From: Leucoraja erinacea
Taxonomy: Eukaryota
Reading direction: 5' to 3'
DNA: 64,000 nucleotides
Assembly (NCBI RefSeq): GCF_028641065.1
Contig: NC_073382.1
Coordinates: 57,412,001 to 57,476,000, forward strand
How positions within the stretch are numbered: position 1 is the first letter of the stretch; each line of letters starts with the position of its first letter. Below the pieces are notes generated by a model. That model was not told the DNA's origin. It made no database searches and saw nothing but the letters and a program-made list of their open reading frames with translations. The translations under genes and the position numbers were made by a program. Positions 3,891 through 54,845 of this stretch are shown in pieces.

Positions 3891-4116
3891 AGCAACAGTA
3901 TAAGCTTTATAAGCTTTAGGTGAGAGTAAGCCATTTACAATAAAGGTTCACAATGAGACCCTGGGAACAAGTGACCCATCTCATATCTTGGAAGTCATCT
4001 CTCTGCGAAGGCCGACATCAATGACAGGCCTCACCTCACCACAGCCTTCGCTGCACACACGCAGCCTCTGGTCAATTGCGGTGAAAGGATTTCAAGACCT
4101 CGGTGTGTAGGAATGA

Positions 4117-5240: not shown

Positions 5241-5547
5241 GTACTGCTATACCAAAGACACAAAGTGCTGGAGCAACTCAACAGGTCAGTCTGCATCTCT
5301 GGAGAAAGGGAATAGGTGGCAATTCAGGTCAGAACCCTTCTTCAGACAGAGATTTACGAGTTGGGTGGGGGGGGGATTAGCCTCAGTTTGCTGACGTCAG
5401 TCCTGGCACTAAACCATGTTAAACCAGGCGCCGATGAACCATGTCCTTTAGTGAGTTTCTGAGACCTGGACTATCTACAGCAGACAACTCAAGCCAATGG
5501 AAAAGTTAACCACCAATTCACAAGAAGAACAACTATAGCAAGATCAG

Positions 5548-5904: not shown

Positions 5905-6535
5905 GAAAGATACAGCATGGAAACAGGCCCTTTGGCCACCCAGTCGATCGATCTCTGGTTCACCTTAGTTCTATGTTATTTCACTTTTGCAACCACTTCA
6001 TACACGTGAGGGGCAATTTACAGAGGCCAATTAACCTACAAATCCACGTGTTTAGATTAGTTTAGTGTAGAGATACGGTGAAGAAACAGGCCATTCAGCC
6101 CACCGAGTACGCACCGCCAGCAATGCCCATACACTAACACTATCCTACACACTAGGAACAACTTACAATCTTTACCAAAGCCAATTAATCTACAAACCTG
6201 TATGTCTGGAGTGTGGGAGCATAGAAGTAATGTCAACAGGTATAAACATAAAATGCTGGAGTAATCCTGGGTCAGGCAACATCTCTGGAGAAAAGGAATA
6301 GGTGGCATTTCGGGTCGGAACCTGTGGCCAGGATTGAACCCAGGTCTCTGGCACTGTAAGGCAGTAACTATCCCTGTGCCACCCACCTTTGGGATAAGGG
6401 AGGAACTGGAGCAGCTTATGGAAACTCACACGGTCACAGGGAAAACATGCAAACTCCACTCAGACACGAGATCGGAATTGAACCGGGGTCTCTGATACTG
6501 TGAGGCAGCAGCTCTACCAGCTGCATCACTGTGAT
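5905..6535 (-). mobile_element. Cluster of nested HE1-like SINE pieces
   Basis: Reverse-complement SINE tails (ATACAGCATGGAAACAGGCCC; TTAGTTTAG) and heads (GAACCCAGGTCTCTGGCACTGTAAGGCAG). Confidence 0.75.
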
Positions 6536-7694
6536 CTTCAAACAGAGGAGAAACATCCCAGATGGTATTTAGTCCATGAATTTGGAGTTCACAGTAGCCA
6601 GAATAGGTGGCAGAAGGAGCAGACCACCCCACAACTTACCCACGCACTCCATCAGTTATTCTCTGGCCCTTCTATGTAACGGTTTGTTAATCCAACATCA
6701 GCCACCTCAAGAACATAGAACATAGAATTTGCAGGCAGATTAAGAGATGGTTTTGGCATCATGTTCAGCACAGACATTATGGGCCGAAGGGCCTGTTCCT
6801 GTGCTGTACCATTCTCTATTATGTTCTATGTTCCATAGAACAGCATGGCGCATGAACAGACCCTTTGGCCCACAACATCTCTGCTAAACATGATATCAAG
6901 ATAAAGGTAGGAAATGCAGATGCTAGTTTATACTGAAGATATTGCACATAATTCATATTCCTCCATTCCCCGTTTATCTATGTGTCCATCTAAAAGCCTC
7001 TTAACTGCCACTATCATATCTGTCTGAAAAATCAGGGTGGAGGCAAGTCATCCATGATCCTGAAGGACTTAGATGAAAACAAGAATAACTTGTCCCTCAT
7101 ATGTCTTATTCTAATTCGATTTGTCTTCAAAGCATTGAAGTTAAATACTTTAATCATTTGCTCTCTAAATGTTTAAAGCAATTAATATGGAGTGGTCTCT
7201 CACCCACCCTCAGTCTGAAGAAGGGTTCCTACATGAAACATCAGCTGTTCATTTTCTCCAGAGATGTTGCCTGTCCCGCTGAGTTACACCCAGCACTTTA
7301 TGTCTATCTTTGTTATAAACTAGCATGCGAGTTCCTTCCTACACATTTTCTCTCACCCACCTACCCCTACCACCCCAACAGAGAACATTGAAAAGCAATT
7401 CAGATAACGTTACAATCCACAAACAACAGCCAGATTGTTATGTATTTCCACTGGTTGGTTAGCATGCAACAAAAGATTTTCACTGGAGAGAAGGAATGGA
7501 TGTCTTTTCAGGTCGAGACCTTTCTTCAGATGTCTGAAACGTCACGTCATCCATTCCTTCTCTCCAGAGATAGTGTCTGTCCCGCTGGGTTACTCCAGCA
7601 TTTAGTGTCTATCTTTGGTTTAAACCAGCATCTGCAGTTCCTTCCTACTCAAAAGCTTTTCACTGTAGCTCGGTACACGTGACAATAAAATCAA

Positions 7695-9630: not shown

Positions 9631-10276
9631 ATAACAGTGAGATGTCGCAGGGGATGTCGCAGTCCACTGGCCCGCTCCAGACTGCAGGAGTACATGCTGA
9701 GGGATGCACCGAACATTAGTGGAGCCAACGACAAGGCTCTGTGGGGGAGGAGCACAGTCTAGGGTCCTTTCGCTGTGTGACATTGAAGGTCTTAGTCTAA
9801 ACAAAGGAAAATTATTGGAAAGGGTGTTTTGTGTAAAGACAGGTGTGAACACTACTGAGTATGACACTATTGAATGTATAGACATTGAGAATCAGACTGA
9901 AGAAGGGTTTCGGCCTGAAATGTTACCTATCTCCTTCGCTCCATAGATGCTGCTGCACCCGCTGAGTTCCTCCAGCATTTTTGTGTACCATACAATTTAT
10001 ACACATCTGTTGCAAAAGCGTTGGTCTGGTACAGAAATGGTGGTCTATTACAAAGTGTACGAAATACCTAGAGAGTTTACAGGACAGATGCAGGGAGAGT
10101 TAAGAGTCCAGCAGTCAGGATCACAGTCTTAAAATAAAGGGTATATTTAGGACTGAAATGCATAGAGCTTCCTACATTCAGAGATTGGCCTTGTCTTTGG
10201 AATTCTCTTACCAAAAGGGCTGCATATGCTCAGTCTCTGATTGGACTTGGAACCAAGACTGATGGGTTTCTGGATA

Positions 10277-11605
10277 TTGGATAGCAGTAGCAGGATTTGG
10301 ATAGCAGTAGCAGGATCAGTCCGAGTCAGCATGGATTTACGAGGGGGAAATCATGCTTGACTAATCTTCTGGAATTTTTTGAGAATGTAAACAGGATAAT
10401 GGATAAGGGAAAGCCAGTGGATGTGATGTATCTGGACTTTCAGAAAGCATTTGATAAGGTCCCACATAGGAGATTAATGGGCAAAATTAGAGCACATGGT
10501 ATTGGGGGTAGGGTGTTGACATGGATAGAAAATTGGTTGGCAGACAGGAAACAAATAGGAATTAACGATTCCCTTTCAGAATGGCAGGCAGTGACTAGTG
10601 GGGTTACGGCAAGGCTCGGTGCTGGGACCACAGCTATTTATAATATAAATGATTTGGATAAAGGGATTAAAAGTAACATTAGCAAATTTGCAGATAACAC
10701 AAAGCTGGGTGGCAGTGTGAACTGTGAGGAAGATGCTATGAGAATGCAGGGTGACTTGGACAGGTTGGGTGAGTGGGCAGATGCAAGGCAGATGTAGTTT
10801 AATGTGGATAAATGTGAGGTTATCCACTTTGATATCAAAAACAGGAAAGCAGTTTACTACCTAAATGGTGTCAAGTTGGGAAAAGGGGAAGTACAGCGGG
10901 GTCTGGGGGGTCCTTGTTCATCAGTCAATGAAAGTAATCATGCAGGTGCAGCAGGCAGTGAAGAAAGCGAATGGCTTGTTGACCTTTATAACAAGAGAAG
11001 TTGAGTATAGGAGCAAAAAGGTCCCTCTGCAGTTGTTTGGGCTCTAGTGAGACCACACCTGGAGTATTGAGTGCAGTTTTGATCCCATAATTTGAGGAAG
11101 GGCATTCTTGCTATTGGGGAAGTGCAGCGTAGGTTTACAAGGTTAATTCGCGGGATGGCGGGACTGTCGTATGCTGAGAGAATGGAGCGGCTGGTCTGGA
11201 GTTTAGAAGGATGAGGGGATCTTATTGAAACATTTAAGATTATTAAGGGTTGGACACGCTAGAGGCAGGAAACATGTTCCCGATGTTGGGGGAGTCCAGA
11301 ACCAGGGGCCATAGTTTACGAATAAGGGGTAAGCTATTTAGAACGGAGACGAGGAAACATTTTTTCTCACAGAGAGTTGTGAGTGCGTGGAATTCTCTGC
11401 CTCAGTGGAGGCCGGATCTCTGGATACTTTCAAGAGAGAGCTAGATAGAGCTCTTAAAGATAGCAGAGTCAGGGGATATGGGGAGAAGGCAGGAACGGGG
11501 TACTGATTGGGGATGAACAGCCATGATCACATTGAATGGCGGTGCTGTCTCGAAGGGCCGAATGGCCTACTCCTGCACCTATTGTCTATTGTCTATTGTC
11601 TATTG
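10277..11605 (+). mobile_element. CR1-clade LINE, 5'-truncated, inserted in an older CR1 tail (~10040-11750)
   Basis: ORF 10297-10797 has SQHGF..GKSCLTNL, YLDFQKAFDKVPH and FADN. (ATTGTCT)n tail; TATTG at both ends (10275-10279, 11601-11605). Confidence 0.93.
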
Positions 11606-12554
11606 AAAGGTTTAGAGGGATATGGGCCAAATGTGGGCAGGTGCGACTAGTGGAAACGGGGCATCTTGGTCGTCATTGGCTAGTTGGGCTGAAGGGCCTG
11701 TTTCCATGATGTATGACTTTATGACCTACCCCTGCTCCTATTTCTTATGTTTTTACACTGTGGGTTTAATTTAGGTCATTCTATTTCAGGACCCAGGTAA
11801 TTCTGATAGCTGGCAAATCAACAGAATAGTGGCCACATTGATTTTCATCCACATGAGGGTGAACAGGCAGCACCATGTTAAAGAATTTCTTGACAAGTGT
11901 ATTTTGTTAAAAAAAAACTGGGCTGGATCTGCAGTTCAAGGTTATAATGTGATCCCAGAATCTTTAAAGAAACTTTTGTTGATGCCCCAGTTTATTGGTT
12001 TGCTGGTTAATTGCTGAATATTTACACAAAAAAGTGGGAGATGAAAGACAATTCATGAAGGAATGTGATGATTCTCAGGCTAGTGGATTAGTAAAAGGCC
12101 CACATTTAATCCCCACTTTGTGCAGAGCCAAGTGGCATCAGTCAGCATAGTGATAGGGACACTGGAATTAACTTGAGCTATCATGGATTAGGGAGGGAAA
12201 GCTGGCCAGGATTCCTGCTTTGATCACTATCCACAGCTAGAACTCTGGGGACTTTGAGATGGGAAGGGGGCTGATTTAGCACTGACACCAAGGATCACTT
12301 ATCAATGAAATACCGGGCAGTTGGGCATATTAGCCTGGTGCATCCAGAACTTGTGAACCGAATGAAAGTAAAGAGCCATTGACTCCAAAACAAGACCACA
12401 TTGAGAAGGGAATGGTGGACAAGAAATTCCCTCATCAGTTTTTAATTAGTCATTTATTAAACAAAGGCATGCACGATAACTTATGTTTTAGCAATTGAGG
12501 GAATGAATGTTTACTCACTTTTCCCCAAAACAAAATTAAGGAGAACAAAATCAG

Positions 12555-12770
12555 TTGGGCACAGAATGTTGGAGTAACTCAGCAGGTCGGACGGCATCTC
12601 TGGAGAAAAAGAATAGATGACGTTTCAAGCCGAGACCTTTCATCAGACTATGTCTCAACCCAGCTCAGGGCAGATTTTCCAACCCAAATGGTGTGAAAAT
12701 CTACGACTCTGAAGAAGGGTCCCAACCCGAAACATTACCTATTCTTTTTTCTCCAGAGATGGGCTGAATT
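12555..12770. mobile_element. Head-to-head Penelope-derived palindromic mini-element
   Basis: Left arm ...GACGTTTCAAGCCGAGACCTTTCATCAG; right arm CTGAAGAAGGGTCCCAACCCGAAACATT...CTCCAGAGATG. The arms are reverse complements. Confidence 0.75.
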
Positions 12771-15519: not shown

Positions 15520-18500
15520 TTAATTTTTTTTTTATTTTCTTAGAAGCAGTGTACAAAAGTATAAACCGCAGCATCTGACATAATACATTTATTGTACAGC
15601 TTCAATTTTTAATTTTTAGCTAAGATGAAATAGAAAAAGAGAGAAAAAGCAAGAAAGAGAGAAAATGAAAGAGAAAGTGAATGTGTAAGAATAGAACCCC
15701 TAGACTACCAAATAAGTGTAGTCAAAGAAATTAGAAAAACGTAAAGAAATAAAAAGACAAAAACAGAAAGAAAAACAAAAAAGTGACGATATACCAGCTC
15801 CATATCTCTCCCTACCCATCACCCAACCCGTAAGGCGGTTTAATTCTGAAGTTGTGTTGCACCATACTATCCTTGTAATGAATCAATGAATGGAATCCAT
15901 GTCTTCGAAAATTGTTCTGGTTTTCCGGCTAAGACAAGTCTCATATTTTCAAGATGTAGCATCTCAGACATGTTTGTAATCCACATTTTAAGAGTAGGGG
16001 CAGATATGTTTTTCCAAAATTTATGTATTCGTTTTTTCACCATTATCAGGCCATAATTAAGGAAACGTCTTTGAAATATTGATAGCTCAGGGCAGGCTTC
16101 TGATGTTCCAAAAATAATCAGTTCCGTATGAGGGTCCAGTTTTGTTTTTAATGTTTTAGAGAAAATTTCAAAAATTCCTTTCCAAAAGTTATGTCGTTTT
16201 ATGCAAGAGGCAAAGGAGTGTGTTATAGTTGCTTCTTGAAGGAGACATTTGTCACAAATAGGAAAAATCTTATTCAGTTTAGTCTTTGAGTAATAGAGTC
16301 TGTGCAGTGTTTTAAATTCGATTAAAATGTGTCTAACATTAATCGAACAATTGCGGAAAAATATAAAAGATCTTTTTCCCATCTGTCTTTGGAAATTTTT
16401 AGGCCTAGTTCCACTTCCCAGTCTCTTCTAATTGCGTCTGATGATGGCATTTCTATATTTAGAAGGGTATTATACAAGTATGATGTTAGATTGTTTGACT
16501 CTGAGTTTCTATTCATACCTTCGTCTAATATATCTGGCAGCAGAGTTTGATAGTCATGGGTATATGTTTTCAAATAATCTCGAATTTGAAGATATCTAAA
16601 ATATTGATTACCTTTAGATTGTATTTTGAATGTCATTTCTGAAATGACAGGAGATTTCCCATCTCGTAGAGATCTCCAACTTTTTTAAATTCCTAGTCTT
16701 TCCCAATGTAAAGTTTTATCTGTAATAGATGGCTTAAACGAATGGTTATTAGCAATTGGTGAAAAAAGAGATAAATTTCTTAGTTTAAAAGTTGATTTTA
16801 CTTGTCTCCACATTCGTAAAGTGCTGTGAATAATCGGATTTTTTTATCATATAGTGTGTTTGTCAGCTTTGTTGGGGAGAGAAGAATCGCGCCTATATTA
16901 AAAGGCGAGCAATCCTCTCTCTCCATTATTAACCAGTCTACCTGTTGGCATCCGTTATCCAGCCAATAAATTTCATTTTTAATATTCGTTGCCCAATAAT
17001 AGTGTATGAAATTGGGGAGAGCCAATCCGCCCGTTTCTATGCATTTGCATAGATGTCATTTATGAATTCTGTGTTTTATAATCCCAGATAAAGTTTGTAA
17101 TCCGAGAATCAAGATTTAAAAAAAAATTATTAGGTAGGTATATTGATTGAAATAAATAGAGAATTTGTGGGAGAAAGATCATTTTTGTAGCATTCATTCT
17201 GCCTAATAGAGACATCGGAAGTGTTTTCCAGAATTGAATAAGAGCGTTTAATATAGTAACTAAAGGCGGGAAGTTTGCGTTGAATAAAGAAGTATATTTT
17301 CTGGTTACCTGAACACCCAGATATTTAAATTTTTCCGTAGCAATTCTGAAAGGGAATTTTAAAAGGTGTGTCAGCTCTTGAGGTTTTATTGCTATAATTT
17401 CACTTTTGTTCCAGTTTAGTCTATATCCTGAAATGGAATTGAATTCCTCTATAAGATTTAATATGTTTGGAATACTAACTTGGGAATTGGTGATATATAA
17501 TAATACATCATCTGCATATCATGATATTTTATTATTGGAGTGTTTAGTATTATAGCCGTGAATGTTTGGATGTACACTTATACTTTCCACTAAGGGTTCA
17601 ATCACAAGGGAAAAGAGCACGCGGTGATAATGCACATCCCTGTCTATTGCCCCTGGATAGCTGAAATTTCGGAGAAAGTATGTGGTTGGTCAGTATTCTG
17701 GCAGTCGGCCTATCATATAATAATTTTATCCATGAAATAAAATTCTCTCCCATCTGAAATTTTTGCAGTACTGTGAAAAGTTACTTCCATTCTACTTGGT
17801 CAAATGCTTTTTCTGCATCTAATAAAATAATTGATGTCTTCTTCTTTAGTTCTGTATCAGTCCATTATGTTAAAAAGGCGTCTCAAATTATTAAACGAAT
17901 GTCTCTTGGGTATAAACCCCGTTTGATCCGAGTGTATTAATTTATTAACGTATTTACTTAATCTTCTTGCCAAAGTTTTCGCTAGTATTTTCTGATCTGT
18001 ATTTAGCAGGGCGATTGCTCTGTATGATCCCGGGTCTTCTAGATCTTTATCTTTTTTGGGTATAAGTGTGATAGTCGATTTAGCTAGTGTTTGTGGTAAT
18101 GTCTGTTCATTAAATGTGTATGTATAAAGATTGTGTAAACGTGGGGAAATTTCCTCGTAAAATGTTTTATAAAATTTGTTACTAAACCCGTCTGGTCCTG
18201 GTGTTTTACAGTTTTTCAGTAAATTGATTGTCTCTTCTAGTTCTTTAATTGAAATCTGTGCTCCTAATTCCTCTTGTTCCAACGGATTAAGTGTTGGAAG
18301 TTTACAGTTGCCCAGAAAGTTTGTAATTTTTCTGCTTTCTGTCGATGTTTTGGATGTGTATAAGTTTTGATAAAATTGGGCAAATCTTTCATTAATGTCT
18401 TTTGGAAGCGTTAACAGTTCACCTTTATCTAATTTAATTTTTAGAATAGTCTGGTCTTTTCAACTTTTCTCAGCTGGCGTGCTGAAAATTTGTGTGGTTT

Positions 18501-19720: not shown

Positions 19721-20949
19721 TTTAACATCAGCTGCCCAAACCCAAGCATTGGCCTCTATCTTTCTGGAAGATCATGGAAAGATCATGTTAATTCATATAA
19801 GCTATTCATGTGTTTTTTCACATTGTGAATGATGGATTATATACCAAATGGAATAGGTAAAGGAGACAACTAAGCTAATGCGTGAAGGTAATGCAAAACA
19901 TAAATTCACAAAGCTACTCATGTGGAAAGTTAGTCAGTCAGTAAACTCATTCAGTAAAACAAAGTCTCATAGAATTTTTTTCAAACTGCCTCTAGGAAGT
20001 ATCAAGTAGAAGGTTTACACTCCTGGGTCATGATTACTGGAAACATAATTTGCATCCCATCGAATTCACCATTTTATGCTTACTTGAAGTCATGCAACTT
20101 GCAAGGTAAACTAATTGCTGGACTAACATATATCCTGGAGTCTAACCAGCGACTGAAACACTGATGGACACAGTGCTGGAGTAACTCAGTGGGTCAGGTT
20201 AAATTCTGGAGAATATTGATAGGTGACATTATAGATTGGGACCCTTCTTCAGACTGAATGGAGTGGAGAACTGGACTGGACTCTTCTTCAGACTGGACAG
20301 GACTGGGACACTGTTTCTTAATCGTGATTCTATTTTGCTCAGTTGGTAAGGTAATTACAGATTTGAGAGAACCAAAGTATGTTCCTTTTCTGACATATTC
20401 AGATATCATCCTCAATAGAAAGATTTTGTGCATTGCTAGGCTTTCTACAATTTATTTTCTTCCTAAAGATTATACAATTACTAGTCGTGACGCTGTCCTG
20501 ATTGTAACTATTTTAAGAAGTTGCAAAGTCTTAATTTAAAACATGTCAATTTGACAATGTTTATTTTGCAAAAACAAAATTGACTGAAATGATAGAAATA
20601 TATTTAGAATGAATATGAAGAATAAAGAATTTCAAATATCAGAGAAGCACAACATGTTACAGAGAGGATTTTTAAAAATTGTTATCAGGCTTTAGCATCT
20701 GGGTAAATAATGAATATGAAGGAGATTTTGTGTGTTTGTTGATTCCGGTGGAAGTCTCCCGGAAAGTATGAGAAATTGTTATTGATCTCAGACAGTAGCA
20801 CAAAATGAACAATAACAAAGCATGCAGCTTTCTTACATCAAGCACAGTCATCTTTTGCATTGCAGAAATGGAAGAAATCCTGAACATAATAAATCAATGA
20901 AGGTATCATTGGTGTGATGAAGATAGGGGATCTTTCACTTTGCCCAATT

Positions 20950-26558: not shown

Positions 26559-26946
26559 TAAATGCCACTATCGTATCTGCCTACATAACCACCCACAGCA
26601 GCCTGTTGCAAGCACTCACCACCCTCTGTAAAAAAACTTGTCCTGCGCAACTCCTTTAAACTTTGCTCCTCTCACCTTAAAGCTACACTCTCTAGTGTTT
26701 GATATTTTCTTCCTTGGAAAAAGGTTCTGACTCTCTAATACATGCCTCTCATGATTTAATATACTTCTATCTGGTCTCTCATCAACCTCCAGTGCTAGAA
26801 AGAAAACAATCCAAGAATGTCCAAATAAGAGGTACCACCTTAAGACGATCATCATCTACTCCTCCAAAATCAGAAGAAACTGGGGTTCAAGTAGAAAGAC
26901 TAGATATGAGCAGCCCACCATCTTCAATGAGAAAACCATCTTCAGT

Positions 26947-26974
26947 CTGAAGAAGGGTCTCGACCCGAAACGTC
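26947..26974 (+). ncRNA. Minimal hammerhead ribozyme motif (Penelope-type), best copy
   Basis: AGT-CTGAAGA-A-GGGTC-TC-GACCC-GAAAC-GTC-ACT: CUGANGA box, helix II, GAAA box, palindromic ACGU, GUC triplet and 3-bp helix I. Flanked by ACCATCTTCAATGA at 26917-26930 and 27037-27050. Activity untested. Confidence 0.6.
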
Positions 26975-27290
26975 ACTCATTCCTTCTATCCAGAGAAGCT
27001 GCCTGTCCCGCTGAGCTACTCCAGCATTTTATGTCTACCATCTTCAATGATCTCCGCACTGACTACAGTCTCAATGACAACCCAGCATCCACTTCATCTG
27101 GTTGGTGGGATCAAAGACATAGGTTTGTTACCCACTTGTCTTTTACTGCTGGCACTACATGATGTTCTTGTGCAACAAAGCAATTATTGTGTAGGAAGGA
27201 ACTGCAGATATTGGTTTATACCGAAGATGGACACAAAATGCTGGAGTAACTCAGCAGGTCAAGCAGCATGACTGGACAAAAGGAATAGGT

Positions 27291-27318
27291 GACGTTTCGG
27301 GTCGAGACCTTTCTTCAG
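27291..27318 (-). ncRNA. Minimal hammerhead motif in Penelope-derived unit (~27188-27320)
   Basis: Reverse complement reads CTGAAGAAAGGTCTCGACCCGAAACGTC. Confidence 0.5.
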
Positions 27319-28234
27319 ACCAATGATTCCGTTTGAGAACAACTAACAATGTGTCCAGGTAAGTTACTGTCATGGCTAAATGAGAGAGCAGGGAAGCTGT
27401 GGAATATGGGTGTGAGGCTTGGAGTGAGAATGCTGATTAGTAGAGATTTCTGTTAGATGAATGATGGGATTGCCTCGCATGGAACAGTGTGTAAAACGTA
27501 TGTCTTTTGATTCACATTGTTAACCATGACAACAAAGACACTGGCTTGCAAATTATCAACGTAAGATCCTTCCATTGTAGCCAGGTTTCTTTTTAAAAAA
27601 GCTTTGCGTAGTTAATTATTTTAAAGTGTGTTTTCTACAAACTGACAACAAAACCTAAAGCCTAATAACAAGCTGCACTATCCTCAGTAGGAGTGCCATC
27701 TACTCTGCGATTAATTGAACACAGCTAATTATTACTTCTCAATTAATTGTTGTTCAGATCTCAAGTGTAATAAAATTAATGATATAGGCTAAGAATTCTT
27801 TTGGTTACTATGTGTCGCAACATTTTAATTGTACTCGTGAAGCTTTCTCTTGCGACCTCAGAATTTCAGGAAAAATTGATAAATGCATTTTTTGCATGAA
27901 TGATAACTTTACTGAGGATGCATCTTCTTAGATATATTTACAGCATCACTGGCAATAACAACCCAAGGAATTATTTTCCCATGGCATGTTAATTGGCATG
28001 AGGCTATATTGCATTTTTACTTCAAATGGAAGTAAAATTGAATTCAAAGTGGAGACAATTTTTAAATAATATCTAATAATTAATTTGAATGTAGGATTAA
28101 AATAACACACTGCTGCACATATAATATCAATAGGTTAAAAAAATATTATACATGCATGCACTCAGCCATTATCAGGTAGGGACAAAGGTTACTGTAACTA
28201 AATATAAAACACCAATGATCTTACTAAATATTTA

Positions 28235-28369
28235 TGTGTAGGATACAACGTCAGATGCTAGTTTAAATCAGTCTGAAGAAGGGTCTCGAACCGAAACGTC
28301 ACCCATTCCTTCTCTCCAGAGATGCTTCCTGTCCACTGAGTTACTCCAGTGTTTTGTGTCTATCTTGTG
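28235..28369 (+). mobile_element. Penelope-derived mini-element with hammerhead motif (28273-28300)
   Basis: CTGAAGAAGGGTCTCGAACCGAAACGTC. Flanks TTACTAAA(T/A)ATTTA at 28221-28234 and 28370-28383. Confidence 0.7.
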
Positions 28370-28665: not shown

Positions 28666-29084
28666 TCTACAGGAAAAATAAATAAGACATCTATATTTGT
28701 GTGGCAAATATTTTAAAATTAATCCTTCCTTAGTTACATAATATCACTGCTTTGTGAAAATGTGCTGTTTTATCATGTTCTTTTTCTTTTTTTTTTTTAT
28801 GTTCGCTATTGCAATTTCACATTATTTGTGTAATAAATATGCCACAATGTACAAAATAACATTCATATTGATTAATTTTAGTTGTAAGATATAACATTAA
28901 TTAATTCATTTCCTACATCAAATAATTTTTCTGAAGTCAGAAAATGGTCTCCCGACCTGGAACATCGTCTGTCCATTCCCTTCCCTGCCTGACCTGTTGA
29001 GTTCCTCCAGAACTTTGTGTTTTGCTGAAGATTCCAGCATCTGCAGTTTTTTGTGTTTTCAAATCATTTTTCGGCTAATCCGTT

Positions 29085-31075
29085 TGTAGTAAAGTCAACC
29101 TTTCACTGTGGGTTAAAAATGAAATAGTCCCAACCGTGACCTAGCTGACTCGTAGGTCTGTTCTTCTAAATTAGACTGCTTCCAACCCGTTACTCTATCT
29201 TCCCTTGTAAAGCTTGTCTCCACTATGAAACCTGCAACCTGCCCCTTTGATGTTGTTCCCACTGCCCTTCTGAAGGATGTCTTTGCAACAGTCGGTCCCA
29301 ATATCCTCTCTATCATCAACAGTTCTCTGGCCACTGGCACTGTTCCAACTGGTTTCAAGCACACGATGGTCCAGCCAGTCCTGAAACAACCTAACCTAGA
29401 CCCCACCTTGCCTAGTAACTACTGACCTATTTCCAAACTGAAAAGGTAATTCGAGACCAATCTAGCCTTATCTACACCAAAATACCATCCTGGAAAGTTT
29501 CCAATCAGGTTTCAGGGCCCACCACAGCACAGAGTCTGCCTTGTTGAAGGTACACAATGACCTCCTTCTCGCCATCGACTCCAGTGACTGTGCTATCCTA
29601 CTCCTTCTCGACCTCAGTGCAGCGTTTGATACAGTGGACCATACCATCCTAATTGACCGTCTCCGATACGGGGTTGGTGTTGATGGCATTGTCCTAAGCT
29701 GGTTCGTTTCCTACCTAAAAAACACGAGTTTCTCTACCAATATAGGCAATTCTTTCTCTTCCCGAGCTAGCCTGTTCTGCGGGGTTCCACAAGGCTCCAT
29801 CCTTGGCCCCATTCTCTTCTCTCTCTACATGCTCCCCCTCGGCCAAGTCATTCAAAGGCATGGCATTTCTTTCCACTGCTATGCAGATGATACACAGCTC
29901 TAACTCACCCTGAAACCCAACAACCGGTCTAATTTAAACAGCCTCACGCATTGCCATGATGATTTATAATGTTGGATGGCTCAGAACTTCCTCCAATTTA
30001 ACGAGAGCAAGTCTGAGGTCATCCTACTCAGCCCCTCCGACCCCATCAAAACGATAACAGGCAGCCTTGGAAGCCTAACCTCCTTAGTCAAACCGCACGT
30101 CAAAAACCTTGGCGTGATATTTGACTCCACCTTGAAAATAATCAGCCTTGGAAGCCTAACACTCCTTCAGTCAAATTATCCGCCCGTCGCAATCAAAAAC
30201 CAAGACTTGGGGTACCCGTAAAAGGGATATTTGACTCTCACCTCCCAGTGAAAGAATAATTCATCCACGTTAAAGAGGGAACATCTTTTACACCGCTGGA
30301 GAAACTCAGCGGGTGCAGCAGCATCTATGGAGCTAACTTTCGGGCCGAAACTCCTGATCAGGGGTTTGGGGACACAAAAGGAGGAGGAGTAGCCGGAAGG
30401 CTGGACATCAGCAAGGACTAACAGAATTATCCCTGTCCCCCCGTCTGCAAAACGGAATTGAGTCCCAAAATGCTGTGGGCCATGGAGGACAGCAGGACAG
30501 AGAGGTCACTTCTGGGACGGGGGGAGTACCCGTCAAAGGTTATTGCGGACCACGGAGGTGTTCAAACCCCGATCCGCTGGCCTCTATAGATCTGCTGACA
30601 CTGAGCAGCCCAGTGTGGTATAGAAGAGATCAACTTCAACGATTGCTCCTGAAAGGAGTATTAGGGGGGAGGTACAAAGCCCTGCTAACGGGAAAGTGCC
30701 CCCCGAGAGGGAAGGGAAGAATTGACAAGGGACAAGCTCCTCTTATTCATTTACAAAGCCCTTAACGGGCTTGCCCCCCCCCCCATATCAAAAATCTTCT
30801 AACCAACCATTCTACCTCCAGGTCCCTCAGGTCTATCCCACTGACTATCCCGCGGTCTAGGTTTAAGCTCAGGGGTGACCGCACCTAAACTGTGGATTAG
30901 CATCCCGCTCCTCATCAGAACTGCCCGCACCATCGACTCATTTGTCACAACTCAAAACCTATTTCTACTCCCAAGCATTGTATGTATCAAATTAGTACCT
31001 GCACTGATGTGAAGCACTTTGGTCAACATGAGTTGTTTTCAAACGTGCTATACAAATAAATTTATTATTATTATT
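29085..31075 (+). mobile_element. L2-clade LINE, 5'-truncated, broken RT
   Basis: ORFs with [43 protein letters not shown] and NFLQFNESKSEV. L2-type tail GTGAAGCACTTTGG...GTGCTATACAAATAAA(TTA)n. Confidence 0.92.
30285..30735 (-). mobile_element. Heavily gapped Penelope-like fragment inside the L2
   Basis: GCTGGAGAAACTCAGCGGGTGCAGCAGCATCTATGGAG...TTTCGGGCCGAAAC terminal unit, followed by purine-rich sequence resembling an antisense Penelope 3' coding region (recalled similarity only). Confidence 0.45.
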
Positions 31076-31261
31076 TGCAAGGTTTCAACTGATCAGGAGC
31101 TTCTGCAATTTTACTTCTCTTGAAAGACTTCAATAACAGTTACTGAAGAAATCCAACAGATCTGAACTCTTCAGCTTTATTTTCACCCTTAACTCAGCCA
31201 GTATTCTAGCTGCCAAGTAACAAAGTTACAAGTCCAATATCGAAGGGCATTATCATAAATT

Positions 31262-31420
31262 GGAAGGTAGACAAAAATGTTGGAGAAACCCAGTGGGTGA
31301 GGCAGCATCTATGGAGAGAAGGAATCGGTGATGTTTCGGGTCGAGACCCTTCTTCAGACTGAGTTTCTCCAGCATTTTTGTCTACCTTTGATTTTTCCAG
31401 CATCTGCAGTTCTTTCTTAA
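31262..31420. mobile_element. Penelope-derived palindromic mini-element
   Basis: Minus-strand CTGAAGAAGGGTCTCGACCCGAAACATC at 31330-31357. Arms GTAGACAAAAATGTTGGAGAAAC / GTTTCTCCAGCATTTTTGTCTAC. Confidence 0.75.
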
Positions 31421-32165
31421 TCATATATTGGAATGTCCTTTTAATACTGTGAGAGTGCTTCCTAATCTGGGCAAGAACTTGGAGGCAGTAGCTCTAAATG
31501 AATGTGCAAAACACAAAGTGCTGGAGTAATTCAGCAGGTTTTAAAGTTTTCAGTTTAGTTTATTGTCAAGTTTACCGAGTAGTGAAAAGCTTTTCTTGCG
31601 TGCTGATCAGCCAGTGGAAAGACAATTATATGATTATAATCGAGCCATTTAGAATATAGATACATGATGAGGGAATAACCTTTAGTGCAAGGTAAAGCCA
31701 GTAAAATCCGAGCAAAGATACAGGTAGCATCTGTGAAGGGAATGGACAGGGGGCGTTTCAGATCGAGTCTCTTCCTCAGACTGATTGTAGTTGGGGGAAA
31801 AAACAGTTTGGGGAAGGACAAAGTTTTGCATGGTGGATACAGGTGAGCGGGAATTTGATCAGTAGATAGATGGAGAAAGTGACAAAATCTACAGATGAAA
31901 AGGAAACAAAAGGGTATCAGGTAAGGAGAGGAGGAGTGTAACAAAGAACCAGAGGGAGGGATACTGGTTGACAAAGGGATAATTCAATTGAGCAATTAGC
32001 ATTAAGGTACTGTCTGTATCATGATTAATGAATGGTTAATTCTAATCACTGTGCATTGTCAAGGAATATTCAACTAGCTGCATCTTATTTTCAGAAACAA
32101 AATGTGGTCCAAAAAAAATTTCAAAGATTGAAAGTGTCCATGCATTTGGGTCAGATGATTTTGAT

Positions 32166-32460: not shown

Positions 32461-33224
32461 TTGGTTAAGACATGACCTCAAGCTGAATCAGCTGCCAGAG
32501 CTATTGAGCGGCATGAATGTTTGCAAATGCTTAAAAACATTCAGAAATTACAAAAAAATAAGTATTTTTACTTTTAAATCATTGGATTAAAATTAAAATA
32601 TACAATTTACTAAAACAAAAAACACTAGAAAAAAATTATTAGAGCACATTTATCAAAATTAATGCAAATTATATAAATCACCTTACATTTACTTCTTCTC
32701 CCTCACCACAGCCGTTCCGCTCAATTAATTGAATAGAATGTGCATCAGGTTAGCACTTCACCAATGTAGGAACCTGCATTAACAAGGAAGTTCTGAACTC
32801 CCTTCTAATTATCTGTGCGATTGCTGGCTGGTAAGTTACGCACTGGACTACCATCATTTTCCACAGAAATCTTGGACATTAAACTGGGACCCTTTCCATC
32901 CTTTTAAGTGGATACAATGCTTCCTGTGACACTACTTACAGATGACCAGACAGAGATAGATAGATTCTTGATTAGTACAGATGTCGGGGGTTGTGGGGAG
33001 AAGGCAGGAGAATGGAGTTAGGAGGGAGAGAGAGATCAGCCATGATTGAATAGCAGAGTAGACTTGATGGGCCGAATGGCCTAATTCTGCTCCTATCACA
33101 TGACCTTATGACCAAGAAATTGTCTGTAAAAAGACACAAGGTATTGGAGTAACTCAGCGTGTCAGGCAGCATCTCTGAAGAACATGGATAGGTGACGGTT
33201 CAGACAAGGACACTTCCCTCTAGT

Positions 33225-33530
33225 TCACCTTCTATCCCTCAATCAAAATCACAGGGAAGGAGGTAGACACAAAATGCTGGAGTAACTCAGCGGGTCAAGC
33301 AGCATCTCTGGAGAGAAGGAATGGGTTACGTTTCGGGTCGAGACCCTTTACTGAGAAGAACACTGTCTGGCCACCGACATTGGTGTTTTTTTGGGATCTT
33401 GCTGTGTACAATTCAGCAGTTGTTCTCTGTGATATTGACTACCCTTAAGAAGTGCACCTCTGCCAGCAAGTGTTTTGGGATATATTGTAGTTGCAAAGGG
33501 TGCTATAAAATGTCAGTATCTATTTTTTTC
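33225..33530 (+). mobile_element. Ancient Deu-domain SINE relic with nested Penelope-derived unit (~33262-33352)
   Basis: TGGGATCTTGCTGTGTACAA...GACTACCCTTAAGAAG...TTTTGGGAT...AAAGGGTGCTATAAAATG resembles the Deu-SINE 3' end. Confidence 0.55.
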
Positions 33531-40222: not shown

Positions 40223-41264
40223 ATGAACAAACGGAATTTACCGACGCTGCCCCAGGCAAGACCACTAACCAGACTGTGGGTCGCTCAAGATTTGGAGAAA
40301 AGAACACATCAAACAACTCCTGAAGAATCTGAGGAGGAAACTGAAGGACAAAGATTTATTGCTGCTATGGAAGGAAAAGTAAAAGAACAAGAACAATCTT
40401 TAAAAGAAGCTGTGACAAAGGACTTTGATGAGATTCTGAATAAGGAGCTTTCCAAGCTGTCTACTCAGCTGGGAAAGTTAGAAACAAGAATGGATGCCAG
40501 GAACAATAATATTTATGATAGAATTAGCATTCTACAGGATCGTGTTGAAGAAGTAGATACCGATTTAAGAGAAGAAATTAAACGGGTTGAAGAAGATTTC
40601 AGTAAAAAGCTGGAGCCCGTTCTCCTTACTTCAACAGAACAAAACAAAGCTATTAATAGATCTGGAAACTACAACTATGGACATGTCTGAAGCGATGCAA
40701 AGAATGAAAGAAGATCTAGACCGAGTTTCTGGGCAACTGGCCAGAATGACCGACAAATGCCTTGATCTTGAAGCCCGGTCCACACTGCAAAACTAAAGAA
40801 TTGTTGGAGTGAAAGAAGGGAAGGAAACTGGAATAGACCCTCGGGTTTTCACTGCCAACTTACTTCAACAAGTATTCAGTCTGTCTGTAAGACCCAAAGT
40901 AGATGCTGCACATCGAGTTCAGAGAGCACACTCAGGGGTCGGAGCTCCACCAAGACAGATTATCCTGAAACTTAACGACATAGCAGTTCTTGAAGACATT
41001 ATGAAGAAAGTGCAAATTGGAAAAAACCTGATGTTCGAAGGAGAAAGTGTAAGATTCTTCAGAGATTACCTGGCAGAGGTGGTGAAGAAACATGCCCTTT
41101 TTACAAAGACCCGGCTGATTCTTAAAGGAATCCCAAACCTGAGATATGGAATAATATATCCTGCCAAACTGAAGGTCACATATAATGACTCGGAGCGTTT
41201 CTTTACTGATCCTGAAGCAGCATTCAAATACGCACATGACTTAAAAAAGGACACTAAAGGATAA
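40223..41264 (+). pseudogene. L1 ORF1p (coiled-coil + RRM + CTD), frameshifted with an internal stop
   Basis: Heptad-rich region, then DLEARS..QN*RIVGVKEG, AHRV....PPRQIILKL, RFFRDY and YGIIYPAKLKV. Confidence 0.9.
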
Positions 41265-42436
41265 GTAAAATGCTACGGCTTTGCTGATTTTGTGGATTAA
41301 ACTACATGTTTAATGTATACCTTTTATATATATATTTATGTGGTAGATTGAGAGAATATGCTTCTTTACATAAAAAGATAAACAAAAGTTGCAGATAAGA
41401 TGGCCGACTAACTCGCACGTGCTAACGTCTAGATACCTTAACAGGGATGGATTGGAACGCAAGCGGATGGAATGTTCAAGGCCGTCGTGTTTACTAAAGA
41501 AAAATTCAAGAAACTGGAATTATGCAATATAGAAAACAAAAATTAAAAGGAGCGGAATGTAATAATCTACTAACAAATTATATGATCAATTATATCACTA
41601 ACATAAATAATTGTACTAAATCATTTATTTTAACCTAAAATGTAATATCATAACCGAATAATGATTAATTCCTCTTTAAAGCTAACACTGAATAATCTCA
41701 AGATGTATGACCTCTAGTTAAGGTTCATTGTTTCGGTATATATCAAAAATATGGTTAATCGATTTGTGTGGGCAAATTTCCCGAAAGGGTCAGGCCAAAC
41801 AGACAGAGAATCATCCAAGCTCGTAAGGAGCCAGTAAAAGACAGACTGAGATGAACCTGGCAGGCAGCCAAGACGCGGATCCAAGACTTAGTTCTCAGTT
41901 AACCCCTTCCAGCCAGATGATCCTTACTTAAATATGACAATTATTAATAAGTTTAAAAAAAAGTTTTTTCTTTTAAATTAAATGCAGCATTTAAATAGTA
42001 AATATCTATTTAGTTTAACCTATTAGATGAATTACTTATAGTACATGCTTGGCTGTTTTTTCTGCGAATATATTATCCGGTTCTGGCCTGTTCGTTCTCT
42101 TCCATAATACTAGTTTGTAAGGAGCGGAGCTAAATGTAATCTACATCTATGGAAGGTAACCCAAATTCTTCCACCATTCGGTGGTTTCACACAGTATTTC
42201 TAAATACTGTTTTTTCATATTATTTATGTTATTTAGCACCTTTTTTGCTTTTTCTCTATACGGCACCTTTCTTTGGGATATACCTACAGAGTTTAAAAAC
42301 TGGGAGCACCCACCCAGCACCCAGAAGGTTGAGTTATTGTGTTGCACCATCTGAAATAAAGAAACCAATGTAGGTTACAATGCAAGATGACCCTCTAAAG
42401 AAAACTGGAGGAATTACGTTTTGTAGCTGGAATATT

Positions 42437-42554
42437 AGATGAGAAAAACATTTTTCACAGAGATGAGAAAAACATTTTTCACAGAGATGAGAAAAACATT
42501 TTTCACAGAGATGAGAAAAACATTTTTCACAGAGATGAGAAAAACATTTTTCAC
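42437..42554 (+). repeat. 24-bp perfect tandem repeat x5
   Basis: AGATGAGAAAAACATTTTTCACAG head-to-tail, with no spacers. Confidence 0.97.
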
Positions 42555-42794
42555 ACAGAGAGTGGTAAATCTCAGGAACTCTCTGCCACAGAAGGTAGTT
42601 GAGGCCAGTTCATTGGCTATATTTAAGAGGGAGTTAGATGTGGCCCTTGTGGTTAAAGGGATCAGAGGGTATGGAGAGAAAGCAGGTACAGGATACTGAG
42701 TTGGATGATCAACCATGATCATATTGAATGGCAGTGCAGGCTCGAAGGGCCGAATGGCCTACTCCTGCACCTATTTTCTATGTTTCTGTGTTTC
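42439..42794 (+). mobile_element. CR1 3' fragment inserted in the L1 endonuclease
   Basis: FFTQRVVNLRNSLPQKVV and (TTTCTATG)-type tail; TATTAG at 42433-42438 and 42795-42800. Removing it restores SWNIRG. Confidence 0.92.
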
Positions 42795-45653
42795 TATTAG
42801 GGGTGCTAATGAGCCAATCAAAAGGGGTAAAATTCTTGCACAATTAAAATCACTCAATGCCGACATAATATTTTTACAGGAAACACATCTTAAAGTCCAA
42901 GCTCAGACCAGGCTGAAGGCCAATTGGATCGGTCAAAAATATCACCACCTATCTCTCTAAATCCAGAGGTACTGCAATTATAATCTGTAAGGGCATACCA
43001 TTTAAACATAAAAAACACCATTGCAGACAAAGAGGGGAAGTATGTCATAGTCTCTGAGGAGATACATTCTACCCCACTTACCATGGCAAATATTTATGCT
43101 CCTAACTTTGATAACCCACAATTTTTTAACAAAATCTTGAATATAATTTCTGAGTCCACTCAGCAAAATGTGATAATCGGGGGAGATTTCAATTGTGTTT
43201 TGGATCAATACCTCGATAAATCTGCCCAACAAAAGAGACATAATATAAAATCAAAATCCAGTGATACGTATTTAAAAAATACAAATACAACAGACGTATG
43301 GAGGATTGCAAACCCTGCCGGAAGAGAATACTCCTACTCATCAGTACATAAAATCTATACACGTATTGACTAGTTCCTAGTGGACACTAAATTAATACCC
43401 TTCACAACTAATCTTAAACACCATAATAGTATCATTTCCGATCATTCTCCACTAACCTTCTCCTTAAAACTAGAAGGAATGTTTAATAAAAAATCATTCT
43501 GGAGGTTTAATCCACAAATACTAAATAATCCGGACTGTTGTAAATAATTAAAACAACAGATGGAACTCTTTTTTGAGACCAATGATACCCCAGACATCTC
43601 ACCCTCCCTATTACGGGCATCTTTTAAGGCTTTTATTAAAGGTTCTATCATTTCATATCAAGCTAATCAAAATAATAAGAATAGGACGGAACAATTGCAA
43701 CTAGAAGAACAGATCAGCCAACTTGATTTAGAGAACGCGATAGATCCAACTATAGATAAACACAACAAGATAGCAATATTGAAATTTAAACTAAACCAAA
43801 TTTTATTTGCAAGAGTTATTAGATTATTTTAAATTACAAAGGAAAATTTCGAATTCGGTGACAAACCACAAAAACTTTTAGCACGCCAGCTGAGAAAAGT
43901 TGAAAAGGACCAGACTATTCTAAAAATTAAATCAGATAAAGGTGAACTGTTAACGCTTCCAAAAGACATTAATGAAAGATTTGCCCAATTTTATCAAAAC
44001 TTATACACATTCAAAACATCAATAGAAAGCAGAAAAATTACAAACTTTCTGGGCAAATGTAAACTTCCAACACTTAATCCGTTGGAACAAGACGAATTAG
44101 GAGCACAGATTTCAATTAAAGAACTAGAAGAGACAATCAATTCACTGAAGAACGGTAAAACACCAGGACCAGACGGGTTCAGTAATGAATTTTATAAAAG
44201 ATTTTACGAGGTAATTTCCCCACGTTTACACAATCTTTATACATACGCATTTAATGAACAGACATTACCACAAACACTAGCTGGATCAACTATCACACTT
44301 ATACCCAAAAAAGATAAAGATCTAGAAGACCCGGGATCATACAGAGCAATCGCCCTGCTAAATACAGATCAGAAAATACTAGCGAAAACTTTGGCAAGAA
44401 GATTAAGTAAATACGTTAATAAATTAATACACTCGGATCAAACGGGGTTTATACCCGAGAGACATTTGTTTAATAATTTGAGATGCCTTTTTAACATAAT
44501 GTACTCACACAGAACTAAAGAAGACATCAATTATTTCATTAGATGCAGAAAAAAATTTGATCAAGTAGAATGGAAATAGCTTTTCACAGTACTGCAAAAA
44601 TTTCAGTTGGAAGAGAATTTTATTTCATGGATAAAATTATTATATGATAGGCCTACTGCCAGAATACTGACCAACCACATACTTTCTCCGAAATTTCAGC
44701 TATCATGGGGCAATAGACAGGGATGTGCATTATCACCCCTGTTGTTTGCCCTTGTGATTGAACCCTTAGCAGAAAGTATAAGAGTACATCTGAACAATCA
44801 TGGTTATAATACTAAACACTCCAATAATAAAATATCATTATATGCAGATGATGTATTATTATATATCACCAATTCACAAGTTAGCATTCCAAATATATTA
44901 AAATTTATAGAGGAATTCGGTTCCTTTTCAGGATATAGAAAAAACTGGAACAAAAGAGAAATTATGGCAATAAAACCTCAAGAGCTGACACACCTTTTAA
45001 AATTCCCTTTCAGAATTGCTACAGAGAAATTTAAATATCTGGGTGTTCAGGTAACCAGAAAATATACTTCTTTATTCAATGCAAACTTCCCGCCTTTAGT
45101 TACTAAATTAAACGCTCTTATTCAATTCTGGAAAACACTTCCGATGTCTCTAATAGGCAGAATGAATGCTATAAAAATGAACTTCCTCCCACAAATTCTC
45201 TATTTATTTCAATCAATACCGATATACCTACCTAAAAGTTTTAAACAAATCTTGATTCTCGGATTACAAACTTTATCTGGGATTATAAAACACATAGAAT
45301 TCATAAACGACATCTATGCAAACCGAAAATCAACTTTTAAACTAAGAAATTTATTTCTTCTTTCACCAATAGCTAATAACCCTTTGTTTAAGCCATCTAT
45401 TATGGATAAATCGTTTACTTATTGGGAAAGACTAGGAATTAAAAACTCGGAGATCTCTACGAGATGGGAAATCTCCTGACATTTCAGAAATTACAGTCGA
45501 AATACAATCTGAAAGGTAATCAATATTTTAGATATCTTCAAATTCGAGATTATTTGAAGATATACTCATGACTATCAAACTCTGCTGCCAGATATATTAG
45601 ACGAAAGTATGAATAGAAACTCAGAGTCAAACAACCTAACATCATACATGTAT

Positions 45654-46488
45654 GATGTTCGGTAGGCGGCGCGACTCTGGTCAGCAGCGGCCTCTGCAGC
45701 CTGTCCGCGTTTTTATTATTTTTTGTCTGTGTTTTTATGTAGTTTTTGTTATTTTATGTTGGGGTGTGTGCACTCCCTGCACTGGAGACCCGACCTTTTC
45801 TCGTCGGGTCTCAGCTGTCGTTGGGGCCGCAACGAGGAGCGGCCTCCAACAGGAAGAAGCCGGGGACTCAGGTGCCGACTCACCGTCACCGTCGCGGAGC
45901 TGGCCGAGACCGGAGCGGGTGGAGCGGTGGAGGAGCGTTGCCGCTGCCCGCTGCTGCTGCTGCTGCTGCTGCTGCTGCCGCTGCTGCTGCTGCTGAGTCG
46001 GAGGCTGCTGCTGCGGGTCTGCGGACGGCGGCACCGGGAGCCCGCGGATCCCTGGAGGGAGACCGCTTTTCGGGGCTCCTGCAACGGCGACTTCTCCCGC
46101 CCGAGTTGCGGGGTCGAAGAGCTCCTGGAGCGGGGCTTAGCATCACTGCCCCGCGCGGCTTGGAATGCGGGACTTTGCGAGCGCACACCGGGGGCTCCAA
46201 CATCAAGACCCGGTGTGCGACCTTGCATCACCCGGCGTGGCTTTAATGGCCGCGGGACAATCGCCATCGCCAGCCGGGGGCTTTGACTTTGACTCTGACA
46301 TCGGGAGGGAGAGAGTGCAGTGGAGAGATAAGTTTATTTGGCCTTCCATCACAGCTATGTGATGGATGTTTATGTAAAATGTAATTATGTTGTGTCTGGG
46401 GTCTATTTGTGTGTAATGTATGGCTGCAGAAACGGCATTTCATTTGGACCTCCAGGGGTCCAAATGACAATTAAATATACTCACTCTT
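45654..46488 (+). mobile_element. GC/CpG-rich non-autonomous retroposon with Rex/Babar-like tail, inserted in L1 ORF2
   Basis: The empty site TCATACTTGTAT|AATACCCTTCT is visible in the other L1 copy (~16460-16485, -). Contains (CTG)n at ~45943-46013 and a 3' hairpin at 46441-46466. Confidence 0.8.
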
Positions 46489-47444
46489 AATACCCTTCTA
46501 AGTATAGAAATTCCATTGTCAGGCTGGGAAGAGGAACTAGGCCTAAAAATTTCCAAAGACAGATGGGAAAAAAATATTTTATTTATACATAATTGGTCGA
46601 CTAATGTTAGACACATTTTAATCTAATTTAAAACACTGCACAGACTCTACTACTCAAAGACTAAACTGAATAAGTTGTTTTCAAATGTTTCTCCTATTTG
46701 TGACAATTGTCTCCTTCAAGAAGCAACTATAACACATTCCTTTGCCTCTTGCATAAAACGACCTAACTTTTGGAAAGGAATTTTTGAAATTTTCTCAAAA
46801 ACATTAAATACAAAACTGGACCCCCATACGGAACTGATTATTTTCAGAACATCAGAAGCCTGCCCTGAGCTATCAATATTTCAAAGACGTTTCCTTAATT
46901 ATGGCCTGATAACGGCAAAAAATATTATATTTAAATTTTGGAAAAATACATCTGCCCCTACTCTTAAAATGTGGATTACAAACATGTCTGAGATGCTACA
47001 TCTTGAAAATATGAGACTTGTCTGAGCAGGAAAACCAGAGCAATTTTCGAAGACATGGATTCTATTCATTGATTTATTACAAGGATAGTATGGTGCAACA
47101 CAACTTCGGAATTAAACCGATTACGGGTTGGGTGATGGGTAGGGAGAGATATGAAGCAGGTATATCATCACTTTTTGTTTTTCTTTCTGTTTTTGTCTTT
47201 TTATTTCTTTACGTTTTTCTAATTTTTTTTCCTTACTCACTCTTCGACTACACCTATTTGGTATTCTAGGGGTTCTATTCTTACACATTCATTTTCTCTT
47301 TCATTTTCTCTCTTTCTTGCTTTTTCTCTCTTTTTCTATTTCATCTTAGCTAAAAATTAAAATTGAAGCGGTACAATAAATGTATTATGTCATACGCCTC
47401 AGTTTATACTTTTGTACCCTGCTTCTAATTAAATTTTTTTTTTT

Positions 47445-47870
47445 TTACAGAAGCCAATTAACCTACTAATCTGCACGTCTTTGGAGCGTGGGTGGAAACC
47501 TGTGCATCCGGAGAAATCCCATGCATTGACAGGGACAATGTACAAACTCCATACAGACAGCACCCACAGTCAGGATCGAACCCGTTTCTCTGGTGCTGTA
47601 AAGCAGCAACTCTACTGCGGCGCCAATTCAGAGAGTAGTTTACAAAAGAAGACACCAAATGCTGGAGTAACTCAGTGGGTCTGGAGAACATGAAAGGTGA
47701 CATTTTGGATTGGGACCCTTCTTCAGACTGATTGTAGTGGGGGGGGGGGGGGGGGGGGAGGAAGAAAAGATGGAGAGAGGAGTAGCAGGACAAAGCCTGG
47801 CAGGTAATAGGATGATATAGGTGAGAGGGGGGAGGGTGAGTTGATAGGTAGATGGTCGACAAAAGCTATG
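47445..47870 (-). mobile_element. SINE 5' half plus Penelope-derived terminal unit with purine-rich extension
   Basis: GGATCGAACCC, then ATGCTGGAGTAACTCAG...GACCCTTCTTCAGACTG and a G run. Confidence 0.7.
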
Positions 47871-54559: not shown

Positions 54560-54845
54560 GAAACAAAGAACTACATATGCTGGTTAATACAAAAAAGGAT
54601 ACAAAGGACTGGAGTAACTCAGTGGGTCAGGCAGCATCTCAGGAGAACATGGATAGGTGACATGTCAGGATGAGACCCTTCTTCAGACTGAGCACGCTAC
54701 CATTGTGTATTCAGATTGTCTGAAGAAGGGTCCCGACCCGAAATGCCACCTATCCTTTTCCTCCAGTGATGCTGCCTGACCCACTGAGTTACTCCAGCAC
54801 TTTGTGTCTATTTGATTTAAACCAACACCTGCAGTTCTTTATTTC
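54560..54845. mobile_element. Head-to-head Penelope-derived palindrome
   Basis: Arms 54560-54690 and 54715-54845 are reverse complements; each has a CTGAAGAAGGG...GA(A/C)A core. Confidence 0.8.

Follow-up and report, generated by a model that had tools for sequence, protein, structure and literature searches.

Short hammerhead-bearing repeats of Leucoraja erinacea are probably 3′-end insertions of a high-copy Neptune-type Penelope-like element

The window analysed here is a stretch of 64,000 nucleotides of Leucoraja erinacea (contig NC_073382.1, positions 57,412,001 to 57,476,000, forward strand). By HMM search, we found 28 scattered copies of a short repeat unit of 95–135 bases in it (Table 1). 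A first-pass annotation had listed 20 of these copies, and the motif is present at all 8 plus-strand and all 12 minus-strand positions it named; further copies lie at about 2303–2419, 6243–6323, 7536–7647, 28935–29052, 30295–30732, 31357–31430, 33130–33216 and 63021–63147. The exact core pattern matched three times in the window and not once in 100 shuffles. Only the copy at 30295–30732 reaches an open reading frame (ORF). The window is rich in repeats, with other LINE fragments at 4072–5246, 10291–10797, 15867–18459, 29466–29903 and 40223–46627, which by motif we take to be CR1-, L1/Tx1- and L2-like.

The focal copy had been given as 26917–27050. A plus-strand copy does lie there, but this span also takes in the copy's 14-bp target-site duplication (TSD). 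Its hammerhead motif consists of CUGAAGA (26947–26953), an extra A, helix II (26955–26966), GAAA (26967–26970) and the palindromic ACGU in ACGUC, with a predicted cut after 26974, which the earlier annotation had placed correctly. Helix II, described there as 5 bp with a 2-nt loop, has 4 bp and a tetraloop (26955–26958 with 26963–26966), and helix I is 2 bp long in the focal motif and in the family. The assignment to the minimal type I hammerheads of Penelope-like elements (PLEs) held up, with CUGAnGA, GAAA, NUH, G10.1-C11.1, the extra nucleotide and a palindromic helix III all present. The bases at the 5′ edge, TCAGT or TCAGTCT, are presumably Inr-like, as they fit the initiator consensus. 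The filler at 26931–26941 may represent a microhomology join.

Table 1 Parts of the focal copy and other copies of the repeat unit in the window
Feature	Position	Strand	Remark
Stub and piece of 3′ UTR	2303–2419	−	
Stub	3619–3707	−	
Stub	5256–5375	−	
Stub without 5′ core	6243–6323	−	
Stub with tail and 13-bp TSD	7201–7345	+	
Head-to-head pair	7484–7647	both arms	
Young-subfamily stub	9891–10009	+	
Head-to-head pair	12547–12761	both arms	spacer ~54 nt
Degenerate stub	20174–20257	−	
Focal copy: left TSD, 14 bp	26917–26930	+	exact repeat at 27037–27050
Focal copy: filler at 5′ junction, 11 nt	26931–26941	+	from the sequence; second partial target copy overlapping the element's first bases
Focal copy: TCAGT	26942–26946	+	5′ edge of stub, helix I 5′ strand and start point of most copies
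Focal copy: minimal type I hammerhead motif	26947–26974	+	layout matches PMC4209133
Focal copy: remaining pLTR, up to tail-less 3′ end	26975–27039	+	model 506–573
Focal copy: right TSD	27037–27050	+	its first 3 bases are shared with the end of the element
Separate stub with tail	27188–27320	−	model 476–607
Stub without tail	28267–28366	+	
Old degenerate stub	28935–29052	+	
Degenerate longer copy	30295–30732	−	remnants of endonuclease end and 3′ UTR
Stub (minus) abutting inverted tail-bearing 3′ piece (plus)	31257–31430	both	
Degenerate stub	31722–31797	−	
Two adjacent stubs	33130–33348	−	33261–33348 and 33130–33216
Stub and ~40–60 nt pyrimidine-rich 3′ UTR	47650–47770	−	
Stub without tail	48478–48576	+	
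Head-to-head pair, both arms tailed	54562–54843	both arms	26-nt spacer
Stub with tail	55922–56054	−	
Head-to-head pair, one arm tailed	63021–63236	both arms	

The motif shares several traits with the minimal hammerheads of metazoan PLEs described by Cervera and De la Pena 2014 (PMC4209133), namely CUGAnGA, the extra nucleotide before helix II, G10.1-C11.1, GAAA, the palindromic 15.2-16.2 and the occurrence mostly as dispersed single motifs. Most such single motifs are ascribed to truncated PLEs in that text, and their activity is described as low even as dimers. Helix II, with 4 bp, is shorter than the 7–8 bp of S. mansoni, and helix I has just 2 bp, a length also found in D. virilis (PMC4209133). 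A search of Rfam at gathering thresholds gave no match. A strict minimal-hammerhead descriptor matched once in the window (at 26947) compared to zero matches in 20 shuffles, and 19 times in 600 kb of random genome compared to 0–1 in 5 shuffles.

In line with a prediction of the first-pass annotation, the core is better conserved than its surroundings: across 122 copies, conservation is 0.955 in the 10 non-CpG core columns and 0.867 in 53 downstream columns of the unit (P 6e-4), a difference biased by the selection of copies for spanning the core and by subfamily differences at the source level, which depress the flank values. Mismatches to the majority of the copy's own subfamily amount to 4.4% in the core and 9.0% downstream, and the gap between core and flanks narrows with base-matched columns. 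We read this as conservation among source elements rather than selection on the stubs. Changes in the helices are one-sided, the closing pair of helix II being U-A in 87 and U-G in 17 copies, with the same change in helix I (74 versus 15 copies). Double compensatory changes were not found within the family, in which respect the motif differs from the hammerheads of PMC4209133. Among predicted folds, the ribozyme fold is not favoured, and the energies are ordinary (z −0.4 to +0.7). Old and rare relatives with the core context CUGAUG were seen at random loci (L097, position 868; L067, 4854; L072, 7311) and may represent a different PLE family whose hammerhead has a longer helix I.

A search of the genome (2.19 Gb) for GIY-YIG endonucleases revealed a family whose ORF end precedes the unit; used as a query, its endonuclease gave 110,003 first-look candidates genome-wide. 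Among the top 30 matches, a set that is biased to one subfamily and contains the query locus, 29 carry the unit in the same orientation, 50–112 nt past the end of the ORF; one of these loci holds merely the first 20 nt of the unit, and at the 30th locus the unit follows at +511 behind an insertion. Twenty longer loci carry the unit at +68 to +117 (15 loci) or at +366 (one locus) or lack it (four loci). In a random sample (60 regions of 10 kb and the window), 16 of 20 ORF ends have the unit within 400 nt on the same strand, the other four being interrupted or broken in the UTR. Judged by eye, ORF-linked members occur in each of the main sequence subfamilies. The 3′ UTR between ORF end and hammerhead measures ~85–120 nt in young and 150–380 nt in older subfamilies and ends, in ORF-linked copies, in a pyrimidine tract that is usually followed by CAG.

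The first-pass annotation had expected homology of the unit to the terminal repeats of an autonomous PLE, and the unit is such a repeat, occurring in pLTRs that flank an RT/GIY-YIG ORF. Loci L206–L209 show direct pLTRs in the order ORF end-UTR-hammerhead-tail, ORF, ORF end-UTR-hammerhead-tail, and L202 is a tandem of ~4.1 kb. RVT_1 was detected together with GIY-YIG in L150, L200 and L201 (RVT_1 E-values between 3e-6 and 3e-4, short of the curated cut-off), in L200 within a frame of 1193 amino acids (E 3e-6, likewise below the cut-off), and C-terminal fragments exceed the Pfam cut-off for GIY-YIG. A PDB sequence search with the RT-EN region had no match. A CxxxxCxxC linker lies between RT and endonuclease in L150, L155, L161, L163 and others. 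The family thus is a canonical EN+ PLE with pLTRs, comprising an ORF with RT and C-terminal GIY-YIG, pLTRs, an inverted copy, a one-sided tail and a TSD, and the unit is its 3′ end, i.e. a pLTR composed of the minimal hammerhead and an optional tail. The designation as Neptune-type was made only from the Zn-finger-like cysteine linker, which points to Neptune or Nematis, since it is common to both (PMC8557442). According to the same paper, Neptune EN+ PLEs resemble the skate family in the single ORF with RT and then a C-terminal GIY-YIG, the cysteine linker, the partial tandems that give rise to pLTRs, the inverted 5′-truncated copy, the hammerhead in the pLTR, the 30–40-bp tail at one end and the heavy 5′ truncation. 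In contrast, the extreme excess of stubs of 95–135 nt and their sharp 5′ boundary at the hammerhead set the skate family apart.

From 442 unit matches in 100 regions of 10 kb, picked at round coordinates on large contigs, we extrapolated ~0.97 million copies (bootstrap 0.84–1.12 million); for the N-terminus of the ORF, 595 first-look candidates compare to ~1e6 stubs. The 3′ ends form two groups about 35 nt apart, which corresponds to a tail of 35 bp, and coverage falls to about zero past the tail (3′-end model built without the nine loci L009, L026, L028, L041, L042, L044, L046, L047 and L050). An inverted arm lies just upstream in 92 of 232 copies. Of 56 pair entries, in which some pairs are counted twice, 37 have the tail on a single arm and one has it on both arms (45 distinct pairs entered the TSD analysis); one-sided tails and inverted copies have been described before as traits of PLEs (PMC8557442). 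Exact TSDs of 9–18 bp flank 14 of 87 solo copies and 13 of 45 pairs, compared to 0.4% and 0.9% in swapped-flank controls. The short copies are primary insertions. Alternatively, the stubs would be solo pLTRs left over when formerly longer insertions were deleted, an interpretation given to rotifer solo pLTRs without TSDs in PMC3846280. Exact TSDs are indeed absent from most copies here (73 of the 87 solos), as would be expected at a divergence of 7–17%. However, short copies and pairs are immediately flanked by TSDs on either side, far more often than the controls, and recombination between pLTRs would retain the 3′ UTR and the ORF end, which are missing from most stubs. Deletion is thus a highly improbable origin.

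We consider it very probable that the repeats are short 3′-end insertions of a high-copy Neptune-type PLE, likely made by the RT/endonuclease of the parent and likely dead on arrival. This is based on the position of the unit after the ORF, the full-length parents, the TSDs, the two 3′ end points, the one-sided tails in head-to-head pairs and the 5′ ends 2–5 bases before the core. As a class, such copies are ordinary, truncated PLE ends with minimal hammerheads having been described since 2014; the fixed 5′ boundary is the extra. Among the matches listed in a literature search, there was no paper on this PLE family. Hammerhead counts in such genomes would mostly tally dead stubs.

The first-pass annotation had favoured another origin, in which the repeats are a retrozyme-like family that codes for no protein and cleaves itself, PLE proteins mobilising its unit-length or circular RNAs in trans. 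A copy number of ~1 million, sharp and recurring 5′ and 3′ ends with TSDs of their own and the better conserved core would suit such a family; with a first filter, just 11 of 127 hammerhead-containing copies were ORF-linked, and a 2026 preprint (10.64898/2026.07.22.740005) derives animal retrozymes from pLTRs. Non-LTR retrozymes are also short, non-coding and pLTR-related and carry a type I hammerhead (PMC7229834 and the preprint). According to PMC7229834, their units stand in tandem, each with a full hammerhead and bounded by cut sites, and give unit-length and circular RNA, whereas the skate copies are dispersed singles or head-to-head pairs that are not bounded by cut sites. A neighbour on the same strand and no more than 150 nt away was seen for just 3 of 232 copies, so the family does not show the tandem repetition of non-LTR retrozymes, and no tandem array with a complete hammerhead per unit was found in the window. 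Tandem arrays of 66 bp do occur elsewhere (L044, G000:C83:153000-162000; also L019, L038, L045, L046, L051 and L215), but they repeat only the part of the unit that runs from GAAA up to the first of the two 3′ end points and are without the CUGA half of the core, which in L044 is present in the first unit only.

Only 4 of 232 copies start near the cut site (model 503–509), and none of 25 TSD-defined junctions lies there; cleavage does not define the stub ends. Also unfavourable to a retrozyme are the small share of copies that pass the strict descriptor (19 of ~250) and the upstream flanks, which are shared in one weak pair among 65 solos. In addition, the PAc RNA of Anolis, from a different clade, needs sequence beyond the RT start sites (PMC11167929), which is absent from the stubs. 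RNA reads came from other, related organisms, with 1–6% of each run sampled. In bulk runs of two of them, the unit is covered about equally in both directions and 91–93% of the reads continue into unlike sequence, which also argues against a retrozyme, and no stacked read ends occur anywhere on the unit in polyA and single-cell runs, libraries that would miss small circles. This coverage fits passive read-through. Since the copies are rarely tandem, not bounded by cut sites and free of shared transduced flanks, and their subfamilies are ORF-linked, a distinct family mobilised in trans appears very unlikely. In polyA run X21 (L150:4700-5340), reads over the ORF end are skewed 1.3–4-fold to first-mate-plus, while those over the hammerhead unit are balanced.

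For the course of PLE stub insertion, Poseidon of Anolis carolinensis (Frangieh et al. 2024, PMC11167929) offers a model from a different clade. Two internal sites at which the RT starts delimit its tail, and both strands are nicked and extended (PMC11167929). As in the skate family, two 3′ end points bound the tail, the hammerhead lies just upstream at the pLTR-ORF junction and uncleaved RNA is the template. The ORF starts inside the hammerhead there, in contrast to a first ATG ~33 nt downstream of the tail here. By analogy, the RT of the skate element would start at two internal sites bounding the tail, and priming from nicks on both strands would give rise to paired head-to-head arms. The Anolis hammerhead cleaves only with protein, and hammerhead mutants still insert (PMC11167929); in the skate, it is likely the parent element that benefits from the hammerhead, whose activity would be weak and aided by protein or a dimer. 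The PLE cycle and the role of the hammerhead are named as open questions in PMC8557442 and PMC11167929. For the PLE mechanism, the skate family supplies roughly a million insertions whose end points are fixed; these end points suggest a mostly uncleaved template and mark one base as a likely RNA start.

This base lies where the 5′ ends concentrate, 2–5 bases before the hammerhead core. In the random sample, 71 of 206 copies begin at model 472–477, which is the TCAGT before the core, and the 25 TSD-defined junctions, which remain after removal of five tandem-array rows from 30 TSD rows, start in CAGT (16), within the next 11 nt (8) or at 512 (1). Because older subfamilies have different UTRs, the pile-up was re-tested with a multi-subfamily library of 36 of 148 natural UTRs. 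Of 142 core-containing copies, 87 extend at most 15 nt into the library, compared to 130 of 142 in a random-flank control; the remaining 55 extend further (12 in the control), a class that is inflated among inverted copies. An artefact of the one-subfamily model was thus partly true, given the older UTRs of 150–380 nt, but the pile-up persists with natural UTRs, and roughly two thirds of the core-containing copies start at the edge of the core. In reads and contigs of three other organisms, loose ends occur before the same A or G. In full-length copies, ~165 nt separate the TCAGT point from the first ATG that follows the tail further downstream. It is not an absolute stop, since 7 of 14 upstream pLTRs in near-full-length copies run through it into an upstream ORF.

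One explanation of the edge, to which we give slightly less than an even chance, is that the RNA of the element starts at TCAGT. RT priming at the pLTR-ORF junction would then run off the RNA 5′ end in a strong-stop-like manner after ~95 or 130 nt, and long copies would come from tandem read-through RNA. Such a start combined with priming at the internal sites would produce cDNAs of 95 or 130 nt, both of which are observed sizes. More tentatively, the ~1 million stubs as a whole may be integrated strong-stop cDNAs of an RNA that begins at the initiator 2–3 nt before the core, with full copies requiring tandem read-through RNA. If so, the hammerhead would sit at the capped 5′ end, monomeric mRNA primed internally would yield only ribozyme-plus-tail stubs, the need of PLEs for partial tandems would be explained, and the stubs across the genome would amount to fossils of PLE priming and run-off. 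Several observations speak against an RNA start at this point: a cap-derived extra G gave no consistent signal at the junctions, RNA of related organisms shows no stacked read starts, the upstream pLTRs mentioned above run through it in 7 of 14 cases, and the corresponding place in D. virilis is a splice acceptor. A strong-stop reading for PLEs is absent from the literature among the matches listed.

The same PLE stubs could also owe their 5′ pile-up to an obstacle to the RT and not to an RNA start, which we regard as a comparably tentative possibility. The RT could be held up by splicing factors bound to the polypyrimidine tract and the CAG acceptor, by the C-rich tract, or where the mini-palindrome TCAG-T-CTGA folds back and anneals. 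A pyrimidine tract ending in CAG directly precedes the core in every ORF-linked subfamily, and according to PMC4209133 and PMC2377424, the same place in the Penelope of D. virilis is a splice acceptor, the intron (75 bp, with the transcription start site 46 nt upstream) ending at helix I. Some head-to-head junctions centre on TCAG-T-CTGA or helix II, and palindromes at inverted junctions are interpreted as self-priming in PMC3846280. However, solo copies show no palindromic extension past TCAG, the best 15 of 173 rows contain no RNA splice joint, and spliced retrocopies were found neither by a genome-wide pattern search nor at 196 ORF ends. The pattern search, which may skip very common words, gave a single exact match to the junction pattern, coincidental in the longer UTR of another subfamily; at the ORF ends the unit lies within 35 nt in 2 of 196 cases, neither a clean splice. 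Joining to random exons was rejected as well, the T at −5 being kept in 55% of 65 solos.

An intact PLE of 759 amino acids (L001–L003) was considered as the parent and dismissed, since the unit has no match in it and its protein is only 32% identical to that of the main family. This second PLE, whose frame combines RT and GIY-YIG and in which no hammerhead motif was found, exists in near-identical copies (L250, G000:C23:1-7000; L251; L252) where three large contigs terminate, its 5′ end pointing outward. In at least two of the three contigs, CCCTAA-type repeats come after its 3′ end. This orientation is the one described for telomere-attached EN-minus PLEs, yet the endonuclease is present.
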